From: Nitrospinota bacterium
Lineage (GTDB): Bacteria; UBA8248
Direction of reading: 5' to 3'
Assembly (NCBI GenBank): GCA_030754595.1
Contig: JASLZZ010000013.1
Coordinates: forward strand, 1 to 63,048
DNA: 63,048 bases
Under the pieces are notes generated by a model that had not been told where the DNA came from, did no database searches, and saw nothing but the letters and a program-made list of their open reading frames with translations. The translations under genes were made by a program, and so were the position numbers. Of the stretch, positions 5,396-63,048 are shown piece by piece (the first letter of the stretch is position 1; each line of letters begins with the position of its first letter).

Positions 5396-5643
5396 CCCCC
5401 CCTAACCCGAAAATCTCGATCCGCGCCCCGAAGCGAGCCTCCTCGCGCTTTAGCGGCATTTCCCGTCGTGACCGGCCCCGGCCGGCGCGCCCGCGGGCTC
5501 AATTTCGCCTCGCCCCACACTGGACTTGACGGGTCGATATCGCTAGATTTGATGAGTCCCATGCGGATAACGCAGCCAAAATCGCGGGCGCCCGGTAATA
5601 TTCGCCGGCGCGCTCCCGCCGCGATCAACCCGGGTGATCGGGA

Positions 5644-6561
5644 ATGCATAAGCCGGAAAATCCCAAAATACCCAGAAGGGACCTTCTTTTCGCGGGGGCA
5701 TTAATCGCCGCCGCGAAAACCCTGGAGGCGCTTGCTACGAATTTTCTATATGCCGAGACGCTCCCCGGGACAACGGCTGGCAAGGTCACCCTCTATGAGG
5801 GCGAGCTGGAGGGGAGGACGGTGATCGTCGCCGCCGTCTTCGACCCGGTAAATGACGGGATAAATCCGAAAATTCGGGCGGACGATTCCCTAGAAAGGAA
5901 AAACATCGGGGAGATGACGCTGGCCGGATTCGGGAAAACATCTTCAACGCTTCCCGGCGGTTCCGACGGAGCGATAAAAAGATATGAGCTTAACGATGGC
6001 ACAGTGGAAGCTGTTGTTTACGGATTTATCGATAAGCCGGGGACCGGTGAGGAAAAAGAATTCGTGGACATCCGGGGAACCGCCTTGTCCGGCGGCGGCA
6101 AGAAAGCCCTCTGGATCGAGAGCCCGGAAAGCGCCGATGCCGGTGGAGGCGGCTGTTTTACCGCTGACACCAGGGTAATGATGGCGGACGGCGGCTTCAA
6201 GCCCATAGCGGACATAAATTTAGGAGAGGAAGTAAGAAGCTTTGATTTTGAGGCGAACAGAGTTGTGAGCAACAAGGTAAGCAAGCTCTTTAAAGTGAGA
6301 GCGCCAAATTTCCTGATGATTAATAATCTGAAAGTCACCGGCAAGCATCCTTTCGCCGTCGGAAAAGGTGAGTGGAAATCCGCCGCGGAACTCAGGGCCG
6401 GCGACAAGGTTATCGGGAACAGCTTCACTGAAATAAAAAGCGTAAAGAGAGTTCCGAGACCGGTGGATGTCTTCAACCTGTCTGTAAATGGAACCCGGAA
6501 TTATTATGTAACCGACGGGAAGAATATTTTCCTGGTGCATAATAAGGGCGGCGACGGCTAA
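5644..6561 (+). CDS. Tat-signal protein with a C-terminal Hint (intein-like, BIL/PT-HINT type) domain
   Basis: PRRDLL twin-arginine leader; Hint Cys171 (CFTADTRVMMADG), block B VTGKHPF, VFNLSV and terminal LVHN (Asn300) followed only by KGGDG. Confidence 0.85.
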   Translation: MHKPENPKIPRRDLLFAGALIAAAKTLEALATNFLYAETLPGTTAGKVTLYEGELEGRTVIVAAVFDPVNDGINPKIRADDSLERKNIGEMTLAGFGKTSSTLPGGSDGAIKRYELNDGTVEAVVYGFIDKPGTGEEKEFVDIRGTALSGGGKKALWIESPESADAGGGGCFTADTRVMMADGGFKPIADINLGEEVRSFDFEANRVVSNKVSKLFKVRAPNFLMINNLKVTGKHPFAVGKGEWKSAAELRAGDKVIGNSFTEIKSVKRVPRPVDVFNLSVNGTRNYYVTDGKNIFLVHNKGGDG

Positions 6562-25715: not shown

Positions 25716-26072
25716 GTGCCTCAGGAATACTTGCCGATTTTCCTCCTTCTCGCGTTGGCGGTGGGATTCGCCGCCGTGAGCCTGGGGATGTCCTTCTTTT
25801 TCGGCAAAAGACGCCCCACACCCGAGAAAAACGCGCCCTACGAGTGCGGAATCGTCCCCGAGACGAGCGCGCGCGGGCGGGTTTCGGTGAAATTCTTCCT
25901 CGTGGCGATGCTCTTTATCGTGTTCGACGTCGAGACCATCTTCCTCTTTCCCTGGGCGGTGGTGTTGCGGGAGCTGGGGGGCTACGCCCTCGCCGCGATG
26001 CTGCCCTTCATGTTCCTGCTCGTGGCCAGCCTGGTTTACGAGTGGAAACGGGGAGCGCTGGAATGGGACTAG
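25716..26072 (+). CDS. nuoA: NADH-quinone oxidoreductase subunit A (set 1)
   Basis: PYECG, FDVE, KRGALEW. Confidence 0.97.
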
Positions 26073-34142: not shown

Positions 34143-34622
34143 ATGCTGGGCGAGGTATTTAGAGGACTGTGGGTGACGATCAAGCACTCCGTCCGTGCCC
34201 GGGAGACGGTCCAGTATCCCGAGGTGCGCGAGGAACTTCCCCCCGGCTACCGGGGGCTTCACAAGCTTCTTCTCTGGGAGGACGGACTGGAGCGCTGCGT
34301 GGGCTGTAAGCTCTGCGCCGCCGCCTGCCCGGTGGAATGCATCTTCGTCGAATCCGGGGAGAACAATCCCGCTAGGCCGGTCTCGAAGGGCGAGCGCTAC
34401 GCGCGCGTTTACGAGATTAACGAGCTGAGGTGTATTTTCTGCGGCTATTGCGAGGAGGCCTGCCCGGTCGGAGCGATCGTTCTGGGCGAGGAATACGAAT
34501 TCTGTGCGGACAGCCGCCAGAAATTCATCTATGGAAAGCGCGATCTGCTCGTGAAGCGGCCCGACGAAATTCCCGAGCTTCAGAGGCGCTATAACGAGAA
34601 AAAGCTGCTCACCTATGTCTAG
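34143..34622 (+). CDS. nuoI: NADH-quinone oxidoreductase subunit I
   Basis: CVGCKLCAAACP and CIFCGYCEEACP. Confidence 0.97.
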   Translation: MLGEVFRGLWVTIKHSVRARETVQYPEVREELPPGYRGLHKLLLWEDGLERCVGCKLCAAACPVECIFVESGENNPARPVSKGERYARVYEINELRCIFCGYCEEACPVGAIVLGEEYEFCADSRQKFIYGKRDLLVKRPDEIPELQRRYNEKKLLTYV

Positions 34623-35217: not shown

Positions 35218-35520
35218 GTGGCTCCACTGGAACATTATTTGATCGTCAGCGCCCTGCTCTTCGCGATTGGGGTGGTGGGCGTCGTTGTGCGGCGCAACGC
35301 CATCGTCGTCGTCATGTCGATCGAAATCATGCTGAACGCCGGGAACCTCGCTTTCGTCACGTTCGGCAGATTTCTGGATTCGATGGACGGCCAGCTTATT
35401 GTGTTTTTCGTGATGGGCGTGGCGGCGGCCGAGGCGGCTATCGGGCTCGCCATCCTCATATTGATATACAGAAACCGTGAGTCCACCGACGTGGACAACC
35501 TGAACCTATTGAAGCTTTGA
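35218..35520 (+). CDS. nuoK: NADH-quinone oxidoreductase subunit K (set 1)
   Basis: [17 protein letters not shown]. Confidence 0.96.
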
Positions 35521-39008: not shown

Positions 39009-40492
39009 CTCCGACTTTTCCTGTGATTCATTGGCCGTATTTGCTTCCGGTGATTTTTGTGGTGTCCGGGGCGGTGGCCGTTCTTCTCTGGGATACTTTT
39101 TCCCGCTCCCGAGATCGGACCTTTCTCGCCGCCCTGACTCTGGCCACTCTCGCGGCCGCGGGGAGCGCCACCCTCTCGGCTTTGCCCGGCCTGCCCGGCG
39201 GCGCCGTCTCCTTCGGTGGCATGTACATCTTCGACCGATTCACGGGGTTTGTATTTATCCTGGTCCTGATCGCGAGTTTTATTTCCGTTCTGATCGCCTC
39301 CGCTCAGATGAGCCTCGACGAGACCCCGGCGGGCGAATATTTCGCCCTTATCCTCTTCGCCACCTCGGGGATGATGCTCATGGCGGGGACGCGGAATCTG
39401 CTGATGATTTTCATCGGCCTCGAGATTCTCTCGCTTTCCTTATATATATTGGCCGGCTATCTCAGGTTCGATCTGAGGGGGAACGAGGCGGCGCTGAAAT
39501 ATTTTCTGCTGGGATCTTTCGCCGCGGGCTTTTTGCTGTTCGGAATGGCCATGATTTACGGCGCTGCCGGCTCGGTGGACCTGTCCCGGATTACCACCCA
39601 CCTCAACGCCCACCCCCTTTCGCGGAACCCGGCCTTCATGCTGGGGCTGGGTTTCATCATCGTCGGCTTGGGTTTCAAGGTGGCGGCGGTGCCCTTCAAC
39701 ATGTGGACCCCCGACGTCTACGAGGGAGCGCCCACGGCGGTGACAGCCTTTATGTCGGTGGGGCCCAAAGCGGCCGCTTTCGCGGCATTTTTCAGGGTAG
39801 TGCTCATGGTGGCGGGCTATGCCGGGGAGAATTTCACCACCGTCCTCTGGGTGATGGCGGCGCTCACGATGACGGCGGGCAATCTGGTGGCCATCTGGCA
39901 GACGAACATAAAAAGAATGCTCGCCTTCTCCAGTATCGCTCATGCCGGATACATTCTGGTGGCCCTGGTGGCGGCCCAGAAGGGCGCAGCCCTGGCCACT
40001 GGGGGATTTCTCTACTACTTGCTTGTTTACTCGTTTATGAACCTGGGTGCGTTCTGCGTGGTGGTGGCCTCTGGCTGGGGCGGGGGGGAGAGAACCGGGA
40101 TAGCGGATTACGCCGGGATGGGCTATACCCGGCCGGTTCTGGCCGCGGCGATGGCGATATTCATGGTGTCTCTGGCGGGGCTGCCTCCGACCGGGGGGTT
40201 TGTCGCCAAATTATATATCTTCAGCGCGGCCATCAAGGCGGGCTATGTCTGGCTGGTGGTGGTGGCCGTCCTGAACAGCGTTGTCGCGGTTTACTACTAC
40301 CTCCGTCTGATCGTGGTGATGTACATGCAAGAGCCCGCGGACGGGGAAAATCAGGCTGCGGCGGGTTCGGCGCGCGTAAGCTCCTATGCGTTCGCCGCGC
40401 TGCTTCTGGCGGTGATCGGCACGCTTGAACTGGGTATATTCCCCGGCGCGGTGATGGAATTCGCCCTCCGTTCGGGTGTCCTTTTGAACTAG
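39005..40492 (+). CDS. nuoN: NADH-quinone oxidoreductase subunit N (set 1)
   Basis: EAALKYF, FK...VPF.MW.PDVYEGAP, GLPPTGGF.AK; ATG 39005. Confidence 0.97.
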   Translation: MTPTFPVIHWPYLLPVIFVVSGAVAVLLWDTFSRSRDRTFLAALTLATLAAAGSATLSALPGLPGGAVSFGGMYIFDRFTGFVFILVLIASFISVLIASAQMSLDETPAGEYFALILFATSGMMLMAGTRNLLMIFIGLEILSLSLYILAGYLRFDLRGNEAALKYFLLGSFAAGFLLFGMAMIYGAAGSVDLSRITTHLNAHPLSRNPAFMLGLGFIIVGLGFKVAAVPFNMWTPDVYEGAPTAVTAFMSVGPKAAAFAAFFRVVLMVAGYAGENFTTVLWVMAALTMTAGNLVAIWQTNIKRMLAFSSIAHAGYILVALVAAQKGAALATGGFLYYLLVYSFMNLGAFCVVVASGWGGGERTGIADYAGMGYTRPVLAAAMAIFMVSLAGLPPTGGFVAKLYIFSAAIKAGYVWLVVVAVLNSVVAVYYYLRLIVVMYMQEPADGENQAAAGSARVSSYAFAALLLAVIGTLELGIFPGAVMEFALRSGVLLN

Positions 40493-40672: not shown

Positions 40673-41080
40673 GTGAGGATCGGTTTGCAGGAATTCATAT
40701 CTGCGTTTTTTGGCGATTACAACGTGATCAACGGCTATGTGCCACTGTTCATTTTTCTGCTGGTGGCTTTGGGGTTTGCCGGGGGCACGCTGCTCGTCGC
40801 CCTGATCATCCGCCCGAACAAGCCCGACCCCGAAAAGCTCGCGCCCTACGAGTGCGGAATGCCCCCGCTCATGGAGGCGCACGAACGTTTTTCCATTCGT
40901 TTTTATCTTCTCGGAATTCTGTTTCTCCTCTTCGACGTGGAGGCGATGTTCCTCTTCCCATGGGCGGTGAAGTACGACGCCCTCGGCCTCTTCGGTTTCA
41001 TCGAGATGATGTTGTTTATCGCGATTCTGCTCGTCGGCTATTTTTATGCCTGGCGGAAGGGAGCGCTGGAATGGGCTTAA
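40673..41080 (+). CDS. nuoA: NADH-quinone oxidoreductase subunit A (set 2); start uncertain
   Basis: PYECG, FDVE, RKGALEW. Confidence 0.96.
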
Positions 41081-41562
41081 TCGACGGAAAGCTGGGCGAC
41101 AACTTTATCACCACTAGATTCGACAGCCTAGTGGCCTGGGCCCGTAAAAGCTCGCTTTGGCCGATGACTTTCGGGCTGGCTTGTTGCGCCATCGAGATGA
41201 TGGCCTCGGGCGCCGCGCGGTACGACTTCGACCGCTTCGGGGTCATTTTCCGGGCGACGCCCCGGCAGTCCGACGTTATCATCATCGCCGGGACCGTCAC
41301 CCATAAAATGGCCGATGCGATCGTTCGGGTTTATAACCAGATGCCCGAGCCCAGGTGGGTCATTTCGATGGGGAATTGTTCGACCTGCGGCGGACCGTAT
41401 GCGAACTATGCCGTTGTTCAAGGGGTGGACGAGATCATCCCCGTCGATGTGTATGTGCCGGGATGCCCCCCCCGCCCGGAAGCCCTGATGTGGGGCGTCA
41501 TGCAGCTACAGAAAAAGATCGAGCAGGAAAGGTTCGTCCGCAAGAGTAAATCGGCGGCGTAG
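41071..41562 (+). CDS. nuoB: NADH-quinone oxidoreductase subunit B (set 2)
   Basis: [25 protein letters not shown]. Confidence 0.97.
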
Positions 41563-41572
41563 ACTCCCAAAA

Positions 41573-42151
41573 ATGGCAGACGAAGTCGGAACCGAGGAAG
41601 CGAACGGGGAAACTCCTGAAGAGGTTGAAGCGCCGAAAACTCCTCCGGGGAAGGCGCTCAGGGAATTGGTCGATGGGGAGTTTCCAGGAGCGATCCTCGA
41701 GCAAACGGCATACGAAGACCGCGAGGACGAGGTGACGTTTGTCCTCAAGGACGACGCCCTGGTGGGGGTGGCGACCTATCTGCGCGATCATCCGGCCACG
41801 AGCTTCAAGATACTGACGGATCTGACCGCCGCGCACTATCCCGGCGAGGAAACGCCGTTCCATGTCGTCTATCAGCTGGTCAGCGTCGATCACGGCCGCT
41901 TGCTTCGCCTGAAGGTGAAGGCCAGGGAGGACCAAGAGGTCCCCACCGTGTCGGGGGTTTGGTCAAGCGCGAACTGGATGGAGCGGGAGGTCTACGATTT
42001 GTTCGGCGTCCGCTTCAAGGACCACCCGGATCTTAGGCGTATTTTTCTTCCCGACGATTGGGGAAGTTATCCTTTCAGGAAGGACTATCCTCTCGAGGGC
42101 CGGGGGGAGCGCGTATACTCGAAACCCACGCGCAAGGAAATCGGCGACTAG
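41573..42151 (+). CDS. nuoC: NADH-quinone oxidoreductase subunit C (set 2)
   Basis: WMEREVYDLFG, HPDLRRI, PFRKDYP. Confidence 0.96.
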   Translation: MADEVGTEEANGETPEEVEAPKTPPGKALRELVDGEFPGAILEQTAYEDREDEVTFVLKDDALVGVATYLRDHPATSFKILTDLTAAHYPGEETPFHVVYQLVSVDHGRLLRLKVKAREDQEVPTVSGVWSSANWMEREVYDLFGVRFKDHPDLRRIFLPDDWGSYPFRKDYPLEGRGERVYSKPTRKEIGD

Positions 42152-42207
42152 GGCCTTCGCCGCCCGGCGGCGTGGCTTTTATTTGAGTTGAATCGGGAGA
42201 TACCCTG

Positions 42208-43350
42208 ATGCTCGGAGCGGAAATCTCGTCCCGGATTGAGCGGTCCAGCACCGTCCCCGGCACCGAGGAACTCGTCATCAACATGGGGCCCCAGCACCCC
42301 AGCACGCACGGGGTGCTCCGGATTATCCTCAAGCTCGACGGCGAGACGGTCAAGGACGTCGATTGCGATATCGGCTACCTCCACCGGGGCACCGAGAAGA
42401 TCGGAGAGAACATCACATACACGATGTTCATCCCCTATACGGATCGGCTCGATTACATCGCCGCCCCCTCGTGCAATCTGGCCTGGGTCCAGGCGGTCGA
42501 ATCGTTCTTCGACTGGGAGATTCCGGACCGCGCTCTTTTCATCCGCTCCATCGTGGCCGAGCTTTCGCGGATCGCGAGCCATCTTCTCTGGCTGGCCACC
42601 CACGCGCTCGACATCGGCGCGATGACGGTTTTTCTGTGGTGTTTCCGGGAGCGGGAGATGGTTCTCGATTTGTTCGAGAGGGCCTTCGGAGCGCGGCTCA
42701 CCGTGAACGCCTTCCGCCTCGGCGGGCTTTATCAGGACGTTCCTCAGGAATTTCTCGACGACGCCCGGAAGTTCATCGAACTTTTCCCGGACCGGGTGGA
42801 CGACTACGAGACGCTGCTGACCGAGAACCGCATCTGGCTCCAGCGCACGCGAGGGGTCGGCGTCATTTCGGCCGCGGACGCCCTCGACTACGGGCTGACG
42901 GGGCCGATCCTCCGCGCATCGGGGGTGAAGTGGGACCTCCGCCGGGCGAAGCCCTACGCCGCCTATCCGTATGTGAATTTCACGATACCCGTCGGTGAGA
43001 ACGGCGACGTCTACGATCGTTATCTGGTGCGGCTCGTCGAGATGCGCGAGAGCGCGAGCATCATCGGGCAGTGCCTCGATATGCTCCCGGGGGGGCCGGT
43101 GAGCTGCAAGACCCCTCGGACGATTAAGCCTCCGGCGGGCGAAATTTATCACGGCACCGAAAATCCGAAGGGGGAATTCGGATTTTACATCGTGAGCGAC
43201 GGGACGGAGACGCCCTACCGGGTCCGTATCCGACCGCCCTCGTTCATCAACCTCGCGGGCCTGAAAAAGCTGTGCGTGGGCGAGCTTTTAGCGGACGTTA
43301 TCGCGATCATCGGCAGCATCGATATCGTCTTGGGCGAGTGTGACCGCTAG
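42208..43350 (+). CDS. nuoD: NADH-quinone oxidoreductase subunit D (set 2)
   Basis: NMGPQHPSTHGVLR, DRLDY, ENPKGE, GECDR; no NiFe CxxC motifs. Confidence 0.97.
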   Translation: MLGAEISSRIERSSTVPGTEELVINMGPQHPSTHGVLRIILKLDGETVKDVDCDIGYLHRGTEKIGENITYTMFIPYTDRLDYIAAPSCNLAWVQAVESFFDWEIPDRALFIRSIVAELSRIASHLLWLATHALDIGAMTVFLWCFREREMVLDLFERAFGARLTVNAFRLGGLYQDVPQEFLDDARKFIELFPDRVDDYETLLTENRIWLQRTRGVGVISAADALDYGLTGPILRASGVKWDLRRAKPYAAYPYVNFTIPVGENGDVYDRYLVRLVEMRESASIIGQCLDMLPGGPVSCKTPRTIKPPAGEIYHGTENPKGEFGFYIVSDGTETPYRVRIRPPSFINLAGLKKLCVGELLADVIAIIGSIDIVLGECDR

Positions 43351-43379
43351 CGCGCGCCGAAAAGGATTCTTGACCGGAA

Positions 43380-44345
43380 ATGATTGCTGAACTAATCGCC
43401 GCTTTTTTGAAAATCGTTCTCGTGCTCGGGACCATCTCTCTCGTGGTGGCTTACCTAACCTATCTCGAGCGCAAGATCATCGGGCATATCCAGATGCGCA
43501 TGGGGCCGATGCGGGTCGGCTGGCACGGGCTGCTCCAGCCCATCGCCGATGGGCTCAAGCTCTTCCTCAAAGAAGACATCATCCCCTCGAAGGCGGACAA
43601 GATCGTATTCGTCATCGCGCCGATCATGGTGCTGGTGCCCGCGTTCGTGGTCTATTCCGTGCTGCCGTTCGATGAGAATTTCTATATCACCCAGGTTAAC
43701 GTGGGCCTCTTTCTCGTCCTGGCGGTGAGCTCGCTGGGCGTTTTCGGCATCGTCATGGCGGGCTGGGCCTCCAACAGCAAATACAGCCTCCTGGGGGCAT
43801 TTCGCAGCGCCGCTCAGATGCTGAGCTACGAGATTTTCCTGGGCTTCTCTCTCATCGGGCCGCTCATGCTGGCCGGCTCGCTCAACTTCCAGAACATCGT
43901 TAAAGCCCAGTCGGACGTTTGGTTTGTCTTCTATCAGCCTCTCGCGTTCATCGTGTTTTTCATCGCGGCGCTCGCCGAGACGAACCGAATTCCTTTTGAC
44001 CTGCCCGAGGCCGAGACGGAGCTGGTGGCCGGGTTCCACACCGAGTACAGCGGGATGAAGTTCGCTTTCTTCTTCTTGGCCGAGTATGCCAACATCATGG
44101 CGGTCTCCACCGTCTGCATCGCCGTTTTCTTCGGAGGCTGGGGCGGGATCGATGCGATACCTCTGCCGGGCATCGTCTGGTACCTGTTAAAGATGGCGGT
44201 CCTGATTTTCGTGTTTATCTGGATACGGGCGACGCTGCCCCGCTACCGCTACGACCAGTTGATGCGGGTGGGGTGGAAGTTCATGTTCCCGCTCGCGATT
44301 TTGAATATATTTGTCACTGGATTGGTGAAGTTCCTGTTTCTCTAA
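43380..44345 (+). CDS. nuoH: NADH-quinone oxidoreductase subunit H (set 2)
   Basis: [27 protein letters not shown]; follows nuoD directly. Confidence 0.97.
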
Positions 44346-44363
44346 CGGCGAGAGGCATCGGTT

Positions 44364-44879
44364 TTGGAACTGCTTTTCTTTTATTTATTCGCGGCCGGAA
44401 TCATCGGGGCCTCGCTCCTGGTGGTGACCCGCTCGAACGTCATTCACGCGGCTCTGCTGCTGGTGCTCACGTTCTTTTTCATGTCTGGGGTGTTTGTCCT
44501 GGCCGGGGCCGAGTTCCTGGCGGTGGTGCAGGTCCTGCTCTACGCCGGCGGAATCATGGTGCTCTACCTTTTCTCGATCATGTTGATGAACGCTGAGGTC
44601 TCCGTGCGGCTCAGGCAGTTTCACCGCCAGAGCTTTTTCACGATCGTCGTCTCGCTGATTCTGGCGGCGGAGATTTGGTGGAAGGTTCTGGGCGGGGGGG
44701 CCGCATATCCGGCCTTCAAGGGTTTTTCGTGGACGCTGGGGACGACGCCCGGAAACGTCGAGGCGCTCGGATCGATTCTTTACACGAAGTACCTGTTTCC
44801 GTTCGAGGTGGCTTCGATTTTACTGCTGGCGGCCATGATCGGCGCTATCGTTCTCGCCAAACGGACGATAGACCGCTAG
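44364..44879 (+). CDS. nuoJ: NADH-quinone oxidoreductase subunit J (set 2)
   Basis: [21 protein letters not shown]; 18 nt after nuoH, no nuoI between. Confidence 0.96.
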
Positions 44880-44901
44880 GGCCCCGGGAGGAGACAACGG
44901 G

Positions 44902-45204
44902 ATGGTTCCTCTTTCTCATTATCTGGCGCTGGGCGCGGTCGTGTTCGTGATCGGGGCCGCGGGCGTCCTGATGCGGCGGAACGCCATCATCATCCTGATG
45001 AGCATCGAATTGATGTTGAACGCCGTGAACATCACTCTCGTCGGCTTCTCGCGCCAGTGGGGGGACCTGACGGGCCAGGTGCTCGCCATCTTCGTCATCA
45101 CGGTTGCGGCGGCGGAGGCGGCCGTGGGCCTGGCCATCCTGATCTCCTTGAACCGAGACCGGTCGGTCCTCAACGTGGACGAAGTGAACCTTTTGAAGTG
45201 GTAG
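44902..45204 (+). CDS. nuoK: NADH-quinone oxidoreductase subunit K (set 2)
   Basis: [17 protein letters not shown]. Confidence 0.96.
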
Positions 45205-45211
45205 GGAACGA

Positions 45212-47242
45212 ATGATCAAACTCGCGTGGCTCATACCGTTGTTCCCGGCGCTCGGCGTCGTCATCAACGGCTTCTTCGGCTCCCGCTACACCCGGGACAA
45301 GGCGGGGCACATCGCCGCCCTGATGGCGGGTCTCTCGTTCCTGGTCGTCCTCGGAATCGCCTTCGAGATGATCTTCGGAAGCGGCGGCAAGCACACGATC
45401 CACCTCTGGGACTGGATCTCGGCGGGCAAGTTCTCGGTTTCCGTCGCCTTTTTGATCGATCCGCTAAGCACCATCATGCTCCTCGTCGTGTCGGGCGTGG
45501 GTTTCCTCGTCCATGTCTATTCTGTCGGCTACCTCCACGGCGACCCGGGTTATCCTCGGTTTTTCACCTACCTGAACCTGTTCATGCTCTCGATGTTCCT
45601 CCTCGTCCTCGGGGACAACTACCTGCTCATGTTCGTCGGGTGGGAGGGCGTCGGACTCTGCAGCTACCTCCTGGTCGGTTTCTGGTACGAAAAGCAGTCG
45701 GCCTCGGACGCCGGGAAAAAGGCCTTTATCGTCAACCGGATCGGCGACGCCGGCTTTTTGCTCGGCATGTTCATGATCTGGGTTCTAACCGGCAGCCTGA
45801 CCTATTCGGAAGTATTTCATGCGGCCTCGAACATCACGGAAGCCGGGGCCACGGCCATCGGCCTTTTGCTCTTCATCGGGGCCGCCGGCAAGAGCGCGCA
45901 GATTCCGCTCTACGTATGGCTTCCCGACGCGATGGAAGGCCCCACGCCCGTCAGCGCGCTGATCCACGCGGCGACGATGGTGACGGCCGGAGTTTACATG
46001 GTCGCGCGGACGAGCCCGATTTATGTGATGGGCCCCGGCGCCCTCGAGGTCATCGCCCTCGTCGGCGCGGTCACGGCGATTTTCGCTGCCTCGATCGGGC
46101 TGGTTCAAAACGACATCAAGCGCGTCCTGGCCTACAGCACGGTGAGCCAGCTCGGGTTCATGTTCATGGCGCTAGGGGTGGGCGCGTTCGGGGCCGGTAT
46201 TTTCCACCTGATGACCCATGCCTTCTTTAAAGGTCTCCTGTTTCTGGGGAGCGGGAGCGTCATCCACGCCCTCCACCACGCCCCGGTGGATCAGCAACAG
46301 GACATGCGCTACATGGGCGGATTGAGATCGAAGATGCCCATTACCTACTGGACGTTTGTGATCGGCGCGGTGGCGATCGCCGGAGTTCCGCCCTTGGCGG
46401 GCTTTTGGAGCAAGGACGAGATTTTAGCCAACGCCTTCTTCACCGGACACCACTTTGTCTGGGTCCTGGGCTCTGTGGCGGCGTTCATGACGGCGTTTTA
46501 TATGTTCCGCCTGATATTCATGACCTTCCACGGCGAGATGCGGGTGGACCACCACGCCAGAGAGTATATTCACGAGTCCCCCTATTCGATGACGGTGCCA
46601 CTGATGATCCTGGCGGTCTTGAGCGTTGTCGGGGGGATTATTCCGGGCTTCCCGCCGGAGGGCGGCTGGATTCACACCTTCCTCGCTCCTTCGCTGGCCA
46701 AGGTCGGCGCCGGGGGGCATGCGGCGAATGAGGCGGTCCAGTTTGTCCGTGTGTCGGCCGGGAGCGGCGGCGGCCACGGCGGCCCGGCGGCGGTGATTCT
46801 CATCATCCTGGCGATTGCCATCGCCGTGGGCGGAATCGCCCTGGCCTGGTTCATGTACATGAAGAATACGGCGGTGCCGGACGGCCTGGCCTCCCGCTTC
46901 CCGGGCATTCACAGGCTCTTGCTCAACAAGTACTACATCGATGAGATTTATCAGGCCTGTATCGTCAAGCCGATTTACCGCCTGATGAACAGTCTTTGGT
47001 CTTTCGACGCGAATGTCGTGGACGGCGCGGTGAACGGAAGCAGCCTCATCACGCTCGTGTCGAGCCGCTTTTCGGGAATATTCGATCTAAAGACGGTGGA
47101 CGGCGCTGTAAACGGCGTCGCCTCCGTGACGAAGTTTTTTTCTCAGGTTTTCAAGTTCATACAATCGGGCATGGTGCAAAATTATCTTTTCGTGATGCTT
47201 CTCGGTGTTTTCATGATGCTGAGCGCATACTTGTTCCGGTAG
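45212..47242 (+). CDS. nuoL: NADH-quinone oxidoreductase subunit L (set 2) with 26-aa lateral-helix duplication
   Basis: Canonical NuoL motifs plus FD...VDGAVNG repeated at 26-residue spacing. Confidence 0.97.
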   Translation: MIKLAWLIPLFPALGVVINGFFGSRYTRDKAGHIAALMAGLSFLVVLGIAFEMIFGSGGKHTIHLWDWISAGKFSVSVAFLIDPLSTIMLLVVSGVGFLVHVYSVGYLHGDPGYPRFFTYLNLFMLSMFLLVLGDNYLLMFVGWEGVGLCSYLLVGFWYEKQSASDAGKKAFIVNRIGDAGFLLGMFMIWVLTGSLTYSEVFHAASNITEAGATAIGLLLFIGAAGKSAQIPLYVWLPDAMEGPTPVSALIHAATMVTAGVYMVARTSPIYVMGPGALEVIALVGAVTAIFAASIGLVQNDIKRVLAYSTVSQLGFMFMALGVGAFGAGIFHLMTHAFFKGLLFLGSGSVIHALHHAPVDQQQDMRYMGGLRSKMPITYWTFVIGAVAIAGVPPLAGFWSKDEILANAFFTGHHFVWVLGSVAAFMTAFYMFRLIFMTFHGEMRVDHHAREYIHESPYSMTVPLMILAVLSVVGGIIPGFPPEGGWIHTFLAPSLAKVGAGGHAANEAVQFVRVSAGSGGGHGGPAAVILIILAIAIAVGGIALAWFMYMKNTAVPDGLASRFPGIHRLLLNKYYIDEIYQACIVKPIYRLMNSLWSFDANVVDGAVNGSSLITLVSSRFSGIFDLKTVDGAVNGVASVTKFFSQVFKFIQSGMVQNYLFVMLLGVFMMLSAYLFR

Positions 47243-47267
47243 GCGTCTCTGGGACCAGGAGAGTCAG

Positions 47268-48836
47268 ATGGAGAATTATCTGCTTACACTGATCACCTTC
47301 ATTCCCCTGGCGGGGGCGGTGATCGTCATGCTCTTTTTCGAAAAGGGGCAGACGAAAGCCATCAAGGGATTCGCCACGGCGGTGACGATCGTGGACTTCC
47401 TTCTTTCGATTCCGCTCTGGACCCAATTCGACACATCCGAGGCGGGCTTTCAGTTCGTCCAGAAGGTGAGTTGGATCCCGACCATCGGGGTGAGCTATTT
47501 CGTGGGGGTGGACGGAATCAGCGTCCTGCTCGTCCTGCTCACGACGATCACCATGATCGTCTCCACGGTTTGCTCGTTCTCGGCCATCGTCGATCGGGAG
47601 AAGGAATACTACGTCTGCCTCCTGTTGATGTCGACCGGAATGCTCGGAACCTTCATGGCCGTCGATATATTCCTGTTCTACGTTTTCTTCGAGATCACGC
47701 TGGTCCCGATGTACTTCCTGATCGGAATCTGGGGCGGGTCGAGAAAGCTCTACGCGGCGATCAAGTTCTTCCTCTACACCCTGTTCGGCAGCGTGCTCAT
47801 GTTGCTGGGGATCCTGGCGCTCTATTTCGTGAACCTCAAGCTCGGAACCGGAACCCTTACTTTCGATCTGACCGAGCTCTATGCGGTCGGCCCGAAAATC
47901 CCGATCGGCCTTCAGAGCTGGATCTTCCTGGCCTTCTTCGTCGGATTCGCCATCAAGGTGCCGATGTTCCCGTTCCACACCTGGCTCCCCGACGCCCATG
48001 TCGAGGCGCCGACGGCGGGAAGCGTCATCCTGGCGGGAATTCTCCTGAAGATGGGGACCTACGGCTTTGTCCGCTTCGTGCTTCCGCTGCTTCCCCAGGC
48101 CAGCCAGTTGTTCGTGCCCTTCATGGTCCTGTTGTCGATTATCGGGATCATCTACGGCGCCCTGGTGGCCATGGCCCAGACCGACGTGAAAAAGCTGGTG
48201 GCCTATTCTTCGGTGAGCCATCTGGGGTTTGTCATGCTGGGCGTCTTCGCCCTTAACCAGCAGGGTGTCCTCGGCGGCCAGCTTCAGATGATCAACCACG
48301 GCATCAGCACGGGGGCGCTCTTCCTCCTGGTGGGAATCATCTATGAGCGCCGCCACACGCGCCAGATATCGGATTTCGGCGGTCTCTCGACCCAGGTGCC
48401 AATTTACTCGACGATCTTCGCCGTCACGATGCTGAGCAGCATCGGCCTGCCCGGGTTGAACGGGTTTGTGGGCGAGTTCCTGATCCTCGTCGGCGCCTTC
48501 AAGGCGAGCTATGTGTATGCCGCCTTCGCCGTAATCGGAATCGTACTCGGCGCGGCCTATATGCTCTGGCTGTTCCAGAGAATGTTCTTTGGAACCCTCG
48601 ACAACCCGGAGAACCAGAAGCTGACGGACTGCAACACCCGGGAGATTCTATATCTGCTTCCCATGGTGGTGTTGATGTTCTGGATCGGTCTCTATCCCCG
48701 GCCCTTCCTCGCCCGGATGGAGGCCAGCGTCGGCAAGGTAGTGAAAATGGTCAACGTGGCCGCGGCGCCCCATGACAACAAGGCCGCGGCGCTTCCGGTG
48801 GAGTTGCGCTCCCGGTTGAAGGCGAAAACTTATTAG
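47268..48836 (+). CDS. nuoM: NADH-quinone oxidoreductase subunit M (set 2)
   Basis: FFE, HTWLPDAHVEAPT, LLKMG, GLPGLNGFVGE. Confidence 0.97.
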   Translation: MENYLLTLITFIPLAGAVIVMLFFEKGQTKAIKGFATAVTIVDFLLSIPLWTQFDTSEAGFQFVQKVSWIPTIGVSYFVGVDGISVLLVLLTTITMIVSTVCSFSAIVDREKEYYVCLLLMSTGMLGTFMAVDIFLFYVFFEITLVPMYFLIGIWGGSRKLYAAIKFFLYTLFGSVLMLLGILALYFVNLKLGTGTLTFDLTELYAVGPKIPIGLQSWIFLAFFVGFAIKVPMFPFHTWLPDAHVEAPTAGSVILAGILLKMGTYGFVRFVLPLLPQASQLFVPFMVLLSIIGIIYGALVAMAQTDVKKLVAYSSVSHLGFVMLGVFALNQQGVLGGQLQMINHGISTGALFLLVGIIYERRHTRQISDFGGLSTQVPIYSTIFAVTMLSSIGLPGLNGFVGEFLILVGAFKASYVYAAFAVIGIVLGAAYMLWLFQRMFFGTLDNPENQKLTDCNTREILYLLPMVVLMFWIGLYPRPFLARMEASVGKVVKMVNVAAAPHDNKAAALPVELRSRLKAKTY

Positions 48837-48877
48837 GGCCCGGCCTTGAATTCGCTCTATGAATAGGATCTGATCCG

Positions 48878-50380
48878 ATGCCGCTTGTGATTCCCGACAT
48901 ATCGCTTTCCACCGCCGCTCCCGAGGTGGGGCTTGCGATCTTGATCTGCGTCGTGGTGGTCGCCGACTTGTTCACCTCTATGGAAAACAAGGCGGGGATG
49001 GGAATCCTGAGCCTGTTGGGGGTGGCGATTCTGGGGCTCATCGTGTTGTCCCAGTGGGGCGGGGGAGTCCGGACCACGTTCAGCGGGTTCTACATCGCGG
49101 ATAATTTTAGCTCCTTCGTTAAGATGGTCGTCGTTGTAACAACGGCGTTCACGATTCTCCTCTCTCTCCAATACACCAAAATGGAGAAGATCAACTACGG
49201 CGAGTTTTACGTGATGATCCTCTTCGCCGTGTTCGGAATGCTGGTGATGGCCTCGGGCAACGATCTCATCTCGATTTATCTCGGCCTCGAGACGATGAGC
49301 ATCAGCAGTTACGTGCTGGTGAGTTTCATTCGCCATGATCCGCTGAGCCGGGAGGCCGGCCTCAAATATTTCCTGATGGGTGCGTTCGCCTCGGGAATAT
49401 TGCTCTACGGCATCGCGCTGACCTACGGACTTACCGGGACAACCTCGCTGACGGGAATCGCCAAGGCCCTATCGGGTCCGCAGGGAGCGGCGATCGTCGC
49501 CGATCCGGTGATGGTCTTCTCGCTGATATTGTTCGTGGCCGGTTTCGGGTTCAAGCTGGCGCTCGTTCCTTTTCATATGTGGCTACCCGACGCCTATACG
49601 GGGGCGCCGACCTCCATCACGGCGTTTATGTCGGTGGCGGTGAAGATGGCCACCTTGGCCGCGGTCATTCGCGTGTTTTTTATCGCGTTCCCGGCGCTCG
49701 CCGGAAAATGGAACCTCCTGCTCTGGCTCCTGACGGTGTTCACGATGGTTTGGGGCAACGTCGCAGCAATCGCCCAGACCAACCTCAAGCGGATGCTCGC
49801 CTACTCGAGCATCGCCCATGCGGGCTATATCATGTTGGGGATCGTGGCCACCACGAAGATCGCCGGCGGGAAGGCGGTGTTCACGCCGAATGGAATCAGC
49901 GCGGTACTTTTCTATCTGGTGGCCTATATGGTCACGAACCTCGGCGCTTTCGGGATGCTCATCTATCTGTGCCGGGAGGATTTCCGGGGAGACAACATCG
50001 AGGACTGGCGGGGAGTCGGCCATGACCATCCCTGGGCCGGCATGGCCTTTGTCGTCTTTTTCCTCTCGCTGGGCGGTTTTCCCCCGACCGCCGGGTTTGT
50101 CGGCAAACTTTTTCTCTTCGGCACCGCGATCCAGAACGAGTATTACTGGCTGGCGGTGATCGGAATCCTAACGAGCGCCGTCTCCATCTACTATTATTTC
50201 CGCGTGGTGATGGTGATGTATATGGAGCCCCGCGGCGAAAGCCAGCCGGCGATTGAATTCTCAAAAGCTCCTTCCATTTTTGTCGCGCTGTTGGTCCTGG
50301 TGCTGGCGACCATTTACCTGGGTCTGTTCCCCGGGAGTATCATCGCGGCCGCCAAGAGTTCCGTGGCCGGGCTCCTCTAG
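48878..50380 (+). CDS. nuoN: NADH-quinone oxidoreductase subunit N (set 2)
   Basis: EAGLKYF, FK...VPFHMW.PD.Y.GAP, GFPPTAGFVGK. Confidence 0.97.
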   Translation: MPLVIPDISLSTAAPEVGLAILICVVVVADLFTSMENKAGMGILSLLGVAILGLIVLSQWGGGVRTTFSGFYIADNFSSFVKMVVVVTTAFTILLSLQYTKMEKINYGEFYVMILFAVFGMLVMASGNDLISIYLGLETMSISSYVLVSFIRHDPLSREAGLKYFLMGAFASGILLYGIALTYGLTGTTSLTGIAKALSGPQGAAIVADPVMVFSLILFVAGFGFKLALVPFHMWLPDAYTGAPTSITAFMSVAVKMATLAAVIRVFFIAFPALAGKWNLLLWLLTVFTMVWGNVAAIAQTNLKRMLAYSSIAHAGYIMLGIVATTKIAGGKAVFTPNGISAVLFYLVAYMVTNLGAFGMLIYLCREDFRGDNIEDWRGVGHDHPWAGMAFVVFFLSLGGFPPTAGFVGKLFLFGTAIQNEYYWLAVIGILTSAVSIYYYFRVVMVMYMEPRGESQPAIEFSKAPSIFVALLVLVLATIYLGLFPGSIIAAAKSSVAGLL

Positions 50381-50758
50381 CCAGGGCGGGGATTTCTTCC
50401 CCCCTCCCTTTCTCCGGAAACCCTTCTGACCGTCAGTTTTCCCCCAAATGCGCCATTATTCCGGGCTCAATCCGCCATCAGTCGCAATTCGGAACCCCGG
50501 AAAGGCTGTATGGTTCGGGATGGATGATTTTGCATCATTCGATATGCTTTCTGAGACGTTTTTGCACGCCCCGGCCCAGATGATTTTGTCATAATGTCAG
50601 GGGTAGGTTTTTTTTTCGATTTTTCGTTGATATATCGTCAGTACTCAGTCGCATCTCCAAAATTTTTAGAATTGCCGGACTAGGCCGGTAGTTATATAAG
50701 CCATTGTTTTTACTTTTGATACAATTCATGACTGAATTGGCTAATCAGTTTAACATTT

Positions 50759-50774
50759 TGGCATGTGATGTGCA
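50759..50774 (+). promoter_or_regulatory. Sigma54 (-24/-12) promoter with upstream IHF-like site (50697-50709)
   Basis: TGGCATGTGATGTGCA with GG-N10-GC spacing; TAAGCCATTGTTT is one mismatch from the IHF consensus. Confidence 0.65.
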
Positions 50775-50784
50775 GTACTAGAAT

Positions 50785-51039
50785 AGGTGTTACTTCATAT
50801 CTCCTGATGACGATAAGTGGACTGGAAGGAAATTTCTGGCTTCTCAGGAGAGTTTAGAAGGAGACGCTAAAAAAACCCACTAAAACTCCTGATGATGAGG
50901 AGTCATTCTCCCCGGTGGCCGGACGAAGGGTTCCCCTAGGCCGGTGCACTGAACCCCCACCTAATAAATCTTTCCGGCGAAAGCCGGATGGGTTTCCTGC
51001 CGAATGAGGGGCACGTCTTAAAAGACGTGCCCCCTTTTC
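50785..51039 (+). ncRNA. Candidate sigma54-dependent small RNA (about 255 nt)
   Basis: No ORF over 19 codons seen between promoter and terminator; stems TCTCCTGA/TCAGGAGA, ACTCCT/AGGAGT, TCCGGC-GAAA-GCCGGA. Confidence 0.55.
51008..51039 (+). terminator. Intrinsic terminator
   Basis: GGGGCACGTCTT-AA-AAGACGTGCCCC then CTTTTCGTTT; T-tract only on the plus strand. Confidence 0.85.
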
Positions 51040-54543: not shown

Positions 54544-54619
<76 letters not shown>

Positions 54620-62720: not shown

Positions 62721-63048
62721 TCAGTTGTCTATTCTTGGTCTTAACCTAACTGACCCTATTCTTTTATAAAGCTGGAATGCGGCTACCACTATTGAAATTG
62801 GTAATAATAACTGGAGACCTAGCGCGAAATAATTAAATATTATTTCGTTAATAAGTGCGGTTGAACCTATAACTACTGCAGTTATTCCTACCTGAAAATA
62901 GTAGTAAATGAAAATTAGATCGATCGTTGTTAATTTTAAGGGTTGAGGTTTTTCCGTCGAGAAATATAACGCAATTCCAGCTAAGAATGTAGTCGTCAAA
63001 ATACCCAAAGCTAAATTAGACTCTTTAAAAGGGAGAAAGGTCGTATAG
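62721..63048 (-). CDS. C-terminal TM region of a membrane protein, possibly a pentameric ligand-gated ion channel (partial)
   Basis: Frame open to window edge: YTTFLPFKESNLALGILTTTFLAGIALYFSTEKPQPLKLTTIDLIFIYYYF then further hydrophobic helices. Confidence 0.55.
   Translation of the reverse strand, partial: YTTFLPFKESNLALGILTTTFLAGIALYFSTEKPQPLKLTTIDLIFIYYYFQVGITAVVIGSTALINEIIFNYFALGLQLLLPISIVVAAFQLYKRIGSVRLRPRIDN

Follow-up and report, generated by a model that had tools for sequence, protein, structure and literature searches.

Complex I lacking the NuoE, NuoF, and NuoG subunits is found as an 11-subunit enzyme encoded by nuoABCDHIJKLMN operons in metagenome-assembled genomes (MAGs) of Acidobacteriota, Thermoanaerobaculia, Dehalococcoidia, and bacteria of the Deltaproteobacteria type. 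NuoEFG is also absent from the 2M complex I. In Nitrospira, a second NuoM subunit defines the latter enzyme, whose NuoL has a lateral helix with ∼26 inserted residues (Chadwick 2018, as cited in Yu 2022), and similar NuoL insertions occur in Manganitrophaceae complexes of canonical gene content (Yu 2022). Within the phylum Nitrospinota, Nitrospina gracilis and the class Nitrospinia encode a second complex I, NUO-2, whose genes comprise nuoACHIJKLMN with nuoI in place, together with nuoEGD, nuoB, and a nuoF that lacks flavin mononucleotide and has extra iron-sulfur clusters (Lucker 2013; Kop 2024). A MAG of UBA9942 is listed with all nuo genes present twice except nuoEFG (Kop 2024 supplement). 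Statements about these papers, and about Degli Esposti 2015 below, refer to excerpts of each. Here we analyzed a 63,048-nucleotide (nt) stretch of DNA (the window), which is contig C13 of a Nitrospinota MAG (3.55 Mb, 138 contigs, 96.9% completeness, 6.4% contamination). It carries a ten-gene nuo operon (operon 2) that lacks nuoI in addition to nuoEFG. We found a dedicated nuoI gene (nuoI2) on another contig of the same genome, between trxB and pncB. Operon 2 and nuoI2 probably encode an 11-subunit complex I of their own, without EFG and with nuoI in trans, for which ferredoxin is a likely partner.

With the 11-subunit nuoABCDHIJKLMN operons, this system shares the same eleven core subunits. 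It differs from them in that nuoI lies outside the operon, between trxB and pncB and at least 158 kb away on the contigs of relatives, and in that the ten-gene remainder stands directly behind a full 14-gene operon (operon 1). NUO-2 of N. gracilis belongs to the same phylum, is likewise a second complex I beside a canonical one (NUO-1), and has been proposed to act between quinol and ferredoxin. However, nuoB and nuoD are inside the operon here, nuoI is outside, and no second NuoF was found, and the locus thus departs from NUO-2 as the excerpts describe it. Operon 2 with nuoI2 is best read as the known type of EFG-less complex I with its genes in a variant order. The arrangement is not described in the excerpts of the published Nitrospinota summaries (Lucker 2013; Kop 2024), and a search of the literature on Nitrospina complex I or nuoI and on the gene order nuoABCDHJKLMN found no description of an unlinked nuoI at a trxB locus. 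The duplicate nuo set of the UBA9942 MAG may be the same arrangement.

Gene identities in the window were assigned from a listing of open reading frames (ORFs) combined with Pfam and NCBIfam profile searches of the encoded proteins. Operon 2 comprises ten intact genes in the order A-B-C-D-H-J-K-L-M-N at 40673-50380 on the plus strand, and each of the ten proteins had a Pfam match to its own complex I family at E ≤ 5e-28:

nuoA2, 40673-41080, plus strand: 135 amino acids (aa) from a GTG start; Pfam Oxidored_q4, E = 4.8e-39.
nuoB2, 41071-41562, plus strand: 163 aa, carrier of cluster N2; TIGR01957, 241 bits, above cutoff.
nuoC2, 41573-42151, plus strand: 192 aa; Pfam Complex1_30kDa, E = 1.1e-42; TIGR01961, above cutoff.
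nuoD2, 42208-43350, plus strand: 380 aa; TIGR01962, 503 bits in two stretches.
nuoH2, 43380-44345, plus strand: 321 aa; Pfam NADHdh, E = 1.1e-128.
nuoJ2, 44364-44879, plus strand: 171 aa, TTG start; Pfam Oxidored_q3, E = 2.1e-39.
nuoK2, 44902-45204, plus strand: 100 aa; Pfam Oxidored_q2, E = 3.2e-30.
nuoL2, 45212-47242, plus strand: 676 aa; TIGR01974, 751 bits.
nuoM2, 47268-48836, plus strand: 522 aa, the sole NuoM of operon 2; TIGR01972, 636 bits.
nuoN2, 48878-50380, plus strand: 500 aa; TIGR01770, 443 bits.

The original prediction, made from the letters of the window, had described these ten genes as intact, with gaps of 29 and 18 nt and no remnant of nuoE, nuoF, nuoG, or nuoI. Family matches and direct reading of the junctions confirmed that description, and the gene coordinates needed only small start-codon corrections (nuoB2 starts at 41071, its ATG overlapping the nuoA2 stop). 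The nuoA2 start is uncertain by a few codons and possibly lies downstream, alignments with relatives beginning at residue 7. Between nuoD2 and nuoH2, 29 nt separate the TAG stop (43348-43350) from the ATG at 43380; between nuoH2 and nuoJ2, 18 nt separate the TAA stop (44343-44345) from the TTG at 44364, with no nuoI in between. Because these gaps are so small, neither junction holds a nuoE, nuoF, nuoG, or nuoI remnant. The catalytic subunits retain their characteristic residues. The CC, GNC, and GCPP cysteines of NuoB2 correspond to the four cysteines of cluster N2 when aligned with mitochondrial PSST. NuoD2 is of a short type, with a deletion of ∼20 residues relative to canonical NuoD; its GPQHPSTHGVLR and PYTDRLDY segments align with the 49-kDa subunit and do not vary among 14 sequences. 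Quinone-site residues of NuoD include the HPxxHG-loop His and the LDY Tyr.

To locate the missing subunit, the whole genome was searched with the NuoI family profile (TIGR01971). Sixteen matches were detected at E ≤ 0.01, of which only two scored above the curated cutoff of 113 bits: NuoI1 of operon 1 and NuoI2 (122.3 bits). The nuoI2 gene is located outside the window at 5609-6169 (plus strand) of contig C94 and encodes 186 aa with 35% identity to NuoI1. NuoI2 carries both CxxCxxCxxxCP motifs (C63, C66, C69, C73, C101, C104, C107, and C111), which are invariant across 13 orthologues, and its residues 8-149 align with mitochondrial TYKY, including the N-terminal part that is absent from a plain ferredoxin. 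Ten subunits encoded in operon 2 and an eleventh on C94 thus complete the set NuoA, B, C, D, H, and I through N. The suggestion in the original prediction that NuoI might be encoded elsewhere was therefore correct, since a dedicated nuoI2 exists and is kept in 32 of 33 class-level relatives.

The gene cluster on C94 reads trxB-nuoI2-pncB-nrnA, and no nuo genes were detected on that contig within 16 kb of nuoI2. The nuoI2 gene begins 50 nt after trxB and ends 24 nt before the gene for nicotinate phosphoribosyltransferase (pncB), which is followed by a gene for a DHH/DHHA1 protein. The trxB product contains a CxxC motif, scored above the equivalog cutoff for thioredoxin-disulfide reductase (368 versus 343 bits), and is encoded by the only trxB-like gene in the genome. 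This flavoprotein was considered as a ferredoxin-NADP reductase-like donor and rejected, as it is a thioredoxin reductase equivalog present in a single copy. Judged from its sequence and neighbors, NuoI2 is neither fused to nor paired with an obvious donor module. An earlier proposal that NuoI is fused to another donor module was not borne out.

Subunit counts across the genome agree with this assignment. We detected two NuoB, two NuoD, two NuoH (NuoH2 is 50% identical to NuoH1), two true NuoI, and one NuoF, the last in operon 1. Such numbers would be expected for two complexes that each have a NuoI of their own, plus a single NADH module. A second nuoI and nuoEFG locus elsewhere would, according to the original prediction, speak against its reading; the second nuoI was found, and no second NuoF-like gene was detected in the genome at E ≤ 0.001 (NuoE and NuoG were not searched separately). 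In three relatives, a second NuoF-like gene with a long open frame scored below the family cutoff (439 to 474 bits; G010:C1:2217609, G015:C1:2063464, and G032:C1:3169971).

We next asked how widely the two loci are conserved, using a set of 33 relatives up to class level and 7 genomes of other phyla. A NuoI2 orthologue was found in 32 of the 33 relatives (51 to 98% identity), being missed only in G021 (93% complete), and a NuoH2 orthologue was found in 31 (69 to 99% identity), being missed in G005 (87% complete) and G020 (90% complete). The same searches detected neither orthologue in the 7 genomes of other phyla. The two genes are co-inherited and remain apart: wherever both were on one contig (G003, G010, G011, G013, G015, G024, G027, G028, and G032), nuoI2 and nuoH2 were at least 158 kb from each other, as at positions 461,779 and 655,633, respectively, in G010. 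In G015, G027, and G032, direct reading gave the gene order A-B-C-D-H-J-K-L-M-N with no gap that could hold nuoI. Adjacency of trxB and nuoI2 was seen at 20 of 20 family loci and 7 of 7 order- or class-level loci. It was also seen at six of seven loci from public MAGs (four titled Nitrospinota or Nitrospinaceae, three titled "bacterium" or "uncultured bacterium"), the seventh beginning at nuoI2 at a contig end; the public loci nearest to nuoI2 were titled Nitrospinota or Nitrospinaceae MAGs. Since the arrangement is kept to class level, a strain-specific deletion of nuoI is not the explanation. Between the window and G015, identity was 65 to 86% for the ten operon-2 subunits and 78% for NuoI2.

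Two relatives were particularly informative. G027 and G028 (2.1 Mb each, 95% complete, in 6 and 2 contigs, respectively) each encode a single NuoH, a single NuoD, and a single NuoI, which are of the H2, short D2, and I2 types, respectively, with nuoI2 at the trxB locus ∼235 kb from the operon. No operon-1-type NuoH, NuoI, or NuoD was detected in either genome, and no NuoF match was found at E ≤ 1e-20. With the short operon and the orphan nuoI but no operon 1, these genomes argue against both a borrowed NuoI1 and an NADH head shared by the short complex. At the nuoI2 locus of these two genomes, the order trxB-nuoI2-nrnA is kept (L037 and L038), with a 46-residue trace of pncB in G027 and none seen in G028.

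Homologues outside the phylum place the orphan gene among EFG-less enzymes. A search with NuoI2 returned 164 proteins. The closest from outside the phylum were 38 to 46% identical and were encoded within ordinary A-B-C-D-H-I-J-K-L-M-N operons, whose NuoB, NuoD, and NuoM proteins were 50 to 66% identical to those of operon 2. When 73 loci (L050 to L122) were sorted by eye, 39 had NuoI between H and J in an ABCDHIJKLMN operon without E, F, or G, 4 had the order G-H-I-J, and the others were incomplete or arranged differently. A quick maximum-likelihood tree was built from 90 NuoI segments; in it, the 12 I2 orphans formed one clade (Shimodaira-Hasegawa-like approximate likelihood ratio support of 95), and five NuoI1 sequences formed a separate clade (99) among sequences from nuoG-containing operons. 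A NuoD tree of 53 segments, which likewise had separate clades for D2 (96) and D1 (100), showed the same split between families f1 and f4. Both trees were quick, were built from loci picked by likeness to NuoI2, and have poorly supported deep branching. An unlinked nuoI as such is not unique, because nuo genes are also scattered in Acidobacteriaceae, a different phylum with a different NuoI clade: the closed chromosome G041 (identified through L095) has two NuoI and two NuoH genes hundreds of kilobases apart. Rhodothermus marinus may have separate nqo8 and nqo9 genes. In the Terriglobales NuoI clade (L085, L090, L091, L096, and others), no nuo neighbors were seen within 6 kb.

Two sequence features distinguish operon 2 and NuoI2 from their operon-1 counterparts. 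NuoL2 is 38 residues longer than NuoL1 and has two insertions relative to it. The extension of NuoL2 in the original prediction is real: residues ∼601 to 637 contain a tandem duplication of ∼25 residues (VDGAVNG plus ∼18 residues) in the lateral amphipathic helix, and a single stretch of Paracoccus NuoL aligns with either copy. Measured from the K-Y-Y-x-D-E anchor, the tail is 104 residues in NuoL2 and 81 in NuoL1. The long helix was present in all four Nitrospinota L2 orthologues compared (tail of 104 to 105 residues) and absent from three L1 orthologues (79 to 81). In NuoI2, the last cysteine is followed by T-T-P-K-S-I-V after the proline (P-T-T-P-K-S-I-V), compared with P-V-G/D-A-I-V in NuoI1 and mitochondrial TYKY. 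By the ligand scheme of two-cluster ferredoxins, we place this motif just after the final ligand of the distal cluster, on the side that faces NuoG in full complexes; it would fit an altered donor face of NuoI2. Outside the phylum, NuoI and NuoL were both readable at 28 loci. Scoring the NuoI motif as P-K/R/L/V-S-I/L after the last cysteine, we found motif and long helix together at 15, neither at 11, the helix alone at 2, and the motif alone at none; as these loci fall in few clades, the co-occurrence is a pattern, not a statistic. As a sequence pattern, it pairs NuoI2 with NuoL2 and NuoI1 with NuoL1. The NuoI motif (CP-T-x-PKS) and the NuoL duplication are common to the Acidobacteriota, Thermoanaerobaculia, and Deltaproteobacteria-type operons but not those of Dehalococcoidia.

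The NuoL2 insertion is similar in length to that of 2M complex I as described in the excerpt (Yu 2022). The second NuoM, a fourth antiporter-like subunit that defines the 2M enzyme, has no counterpart here: operon 2 encodes one L, one M, and one N, and tblastn detected no extra NuoM-type gene in the genome beyond operons 1 and 2, a C128 contig, and a Mrp-like cluster. The 2.7-kb contig C128 carries a third NuoL gene (490-2400; 67% identical to NuoL1) and is possibly a stray fragment from a different Nitrospinota strain. The Mrp-like cluster (C14:2317-8119; assigned by tblastn and ORF sizes) encodes a 789-aa NuoL/MrpA-like protein and a 559-aa NuoM/N-like (MrpD-like) protein and is the genome's sole additional source of antiporter-like subunits. 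What retains some interest is the long helix of NuoL in an enzyme with just three pump subunits. An AlphaFold2 model of NuoL2 from a 14-row alignment had a mean predicted local distance difference test (pLDDT) score of 74.8; the extra helix segment fell in a region (residues 603 to 660) with pLDDT below 50, so that the model does not distinguish a straight helix from one that folds back.

Taking gene content, conservation, and co-inheritance together, we propose that operon 2 supplies ten core subunits and that the NuoI made from nuoI2, between trxB and pncB, joins them. NuoI2 would bind NuoB2, NuoD2, and NuoH2 at the usual site, and its two [4Fe-4S] clusters would exchange electrons, in one direction or the other, with N2 on NuoB2 and the quinone site that NuoD2 and NuoH2 form, making the complex independent of the operon-1 NADH head. 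A structure prediction of NuoI2 with NuoB2 and NuoD2 scored 0.78, compared with 0.47 for the best control; of the solved complexes, 116 of 157 attained that mark, as did 2 of 215 mismatched pairs. Prediction runs agreed in at least 97% of contacts, with partner pLDDT of 75 to 76. In the predicted complex, NuoI2 residues contact NuoB2 around C101, and residues 113 to 118 lie outside the interface with NuoB2 and NuoD2. Because many complex I structures have been solved and this is a textbook pair, the score indicates likeness to complex I, not binding. The soluble partner of the complex would most likely be a ferredoxin that docks where the distal cluster of NuoI2 is exposed. In the forward direction, electrons would move from ferredoxin to quinone with pumping; in the backward direction, the proton motive force would drive electrons from quinol to ferredoxin. 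Either direction would serve ferredoxin-dependent 2-oxoacid oxidoreductases. The genome contains three alpha-type genes of POR_N-type 2-oxoacid:ferredoxin oxidoreductases and a weak ATP-citrate-lyase-type match (29.3 bits), and published interpretations of EFG-less or altered second complexes in nitrite oxidizers bring in ferredoxin, those of Nitrospinota having been proposed to link it with quinol (Lucker 2013; Kop 2024). Taken on its own, ferredoxin as the partner of the operon-2 complex has, in our analysis, about an even chance of being right.

Several points weigh against this proposal. The link between NuoI2 and the complex is suggested by counts, co-inheritance, sequence signatures, and a prediction that possibly relies on solved structures, and a ferredoxin partner and a flow direction are ones that we purely infer. 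The deep position of NuoI2 in its tree is unsettled, and D2 groups weakly (87) with L074 and L094, whose NuoI proteins fall outside the I2 group; on these sequence grounds, NuoI2 may have had a separate origin. The ∼25-residue longer NuoL2 helix, with three antiporter-like genes, is unexplained by a plain 11-subunit model. RNA support is weak: four metatranscriptome runs from three studies yielded only short contigs (150 to 311 nt, mostly at least 99% alike). These fell on both operons, RNA-library contigs can hold DNA, and bins without cover are uninformative; no contig of the four runs bridged two genes by 31 letters. Finally, the source genome is a MAG with 6.4% contamination. However, the tetranucleotide make-up of C94 is typical of the MAG (correlation to the mean of 0.985, compared with a median of 0.989 over 59 contigs), and in relatives with complete genomes both loci are on one chromosome.

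Operon 1 lies upstream of operon 2 on the plus strand, head to tail with it, and its description in the original prediction as a 14-gene nuo set was upheld by family matches for B1, C1, D1, E1, F1, G1, H1, I1, J1, L1, M1, and N1. The following features define its extent:

nuoA1, 25716-26072, plus strand.
nuoI1, 34143-34622, plus strand: TIGR01971, 138.8 bits.
nuoK1, 35218-35520, plus strand: assigned by ORF position and size alone.
nuoN1, ending at 40492, plus strand: family match.

The two operons are ∼180 nt apart. In 23 genomes, including that of the window, H1 and H2 were ∼10 kb apart on one contig; because of this linkage, we regard the tandem of 14 and 10 genes as old.

The original prediction had favored a model in which operon 2 borrows NuoI from operon 1 and forms a swappable quinone/membrane arm. 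The operon-2 proteins would dock onto NuoI1, and perhaps NuoEFG, so that one NADH head serves two alternative arms. The short spacing and the tandem in 23 genomes are in keeping with such sharing, as are the single NuoF of the window's genome and the fact that no sigma-70-like promoter was found between the operons on the plus strand (by a simple consensus scan, which says nothing on co-transcription). Nevertheless, a dedicated and conserved second NuoI exists, G027 and G028 keep operon 2 and nuoI2 without operon-1-type H, I, or D and with no NuoF found, and it is NuoI2, not NuoI1, that has the motif accompanying a long-helix NuoL. We consider a shared head highly improbable and largely refuted. 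It is very unlikely, if a shade less so, that the orphan is instead a free two-cluster ferredoxin of the trxB-pncB operon, with operon 2 working without NuoI or being an inactive relic. The housekeeping neighbors of nuoI2, 50 nt upstream and 24 nt downstream, and the lack of nuo genes within 16 kb on C94 would suit a free ferredoxin, but NuoI2 scored above the NuoI family cutoff, aligns with TYKY over a part that ferredoxins lack, and is the sole NuoI of G027 and G028. As for a relic, the ten genes are intact, their window-to-G015 identity (65 to 86%) is similar to that of NuoI2 (78%), and NuoB2 and NuoD2 keep the N2 and quinone-site residues.

The adjacency of trxB and nuoI2 in all 27 relatives' loci could also mean that the two work as a pair, with the thioredoxin-reductase flavoprotein oxidizing NADPH as the input to NuoI2. 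A flavoprotein replacing NuoI has been described in mbx-like operons (excerpt of Degli Esposti 2015). Here, the score of TrxB above its equivalog cutoff (368 versus 343 bits), its CxxC motif, and its status as the only trxB-like gene product mark it as the housekeeping enzyme, and we rate this pairing as the least probable of the explanations. Less remote, though still improbable, is that the enzyme belongs to an undescribed EFG-less subfamily with a T-x-P-K-S insertion in NuoI by the distal cluster, a NuoL helix longer by ∼37 Å, and three antiporter-like genes, possibly involving a clamp, a dock, and redox control. In such a subfamily, the long helix could clamp a fourth, unrecognized membrane subunit, and placement of nuoI in the trxB operon could give the subunit that takes in electrons its own, redox-linked control of assembly. 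Ferredoxin could dock directly on the altered face of NuoI, in which case these enzymes would be the "yet unknown ferredoxin-reducing complexes" of Nitrospinota (Kop 2024). Of all these readings, an EFG-less complex with its own nuoI in trans is the one we favor. It removes an apparent paradox, since the electron wire is not missing and only the nuoI gene is relocated. Surveys that score complex I by operon content would misread this lineage. G027 and G028, which depend on the EFG-less complex alone, are good subjects for the question of the electron donor, and the NuoI motif and longer NuoL helix are two concrete features to inspect in a structure.

Downstream of operon 2, no ORF of at least 60 aa and no Rfam match was found in 50381-51008. 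A pattern scan identified one feature beyond it:

terminator-like hairpin, 51008-51033, plus strand: 11 pairs, 8 of them G-C, with a T-rich tail, ∼630 nt past nuoN2.

Farther along, a tRNA-Phe gene (54544-54619) marks a fall in G+C content from ∼0.60-0.65 to ∼0.46-0.47 that continues to position 63048. A family 2 glycosyltransferase is encoded in the stretch beyond this tRNA gene, which is possibly an inserted island. G+C is low (0.50) in the initial 4 kb of the window as well.

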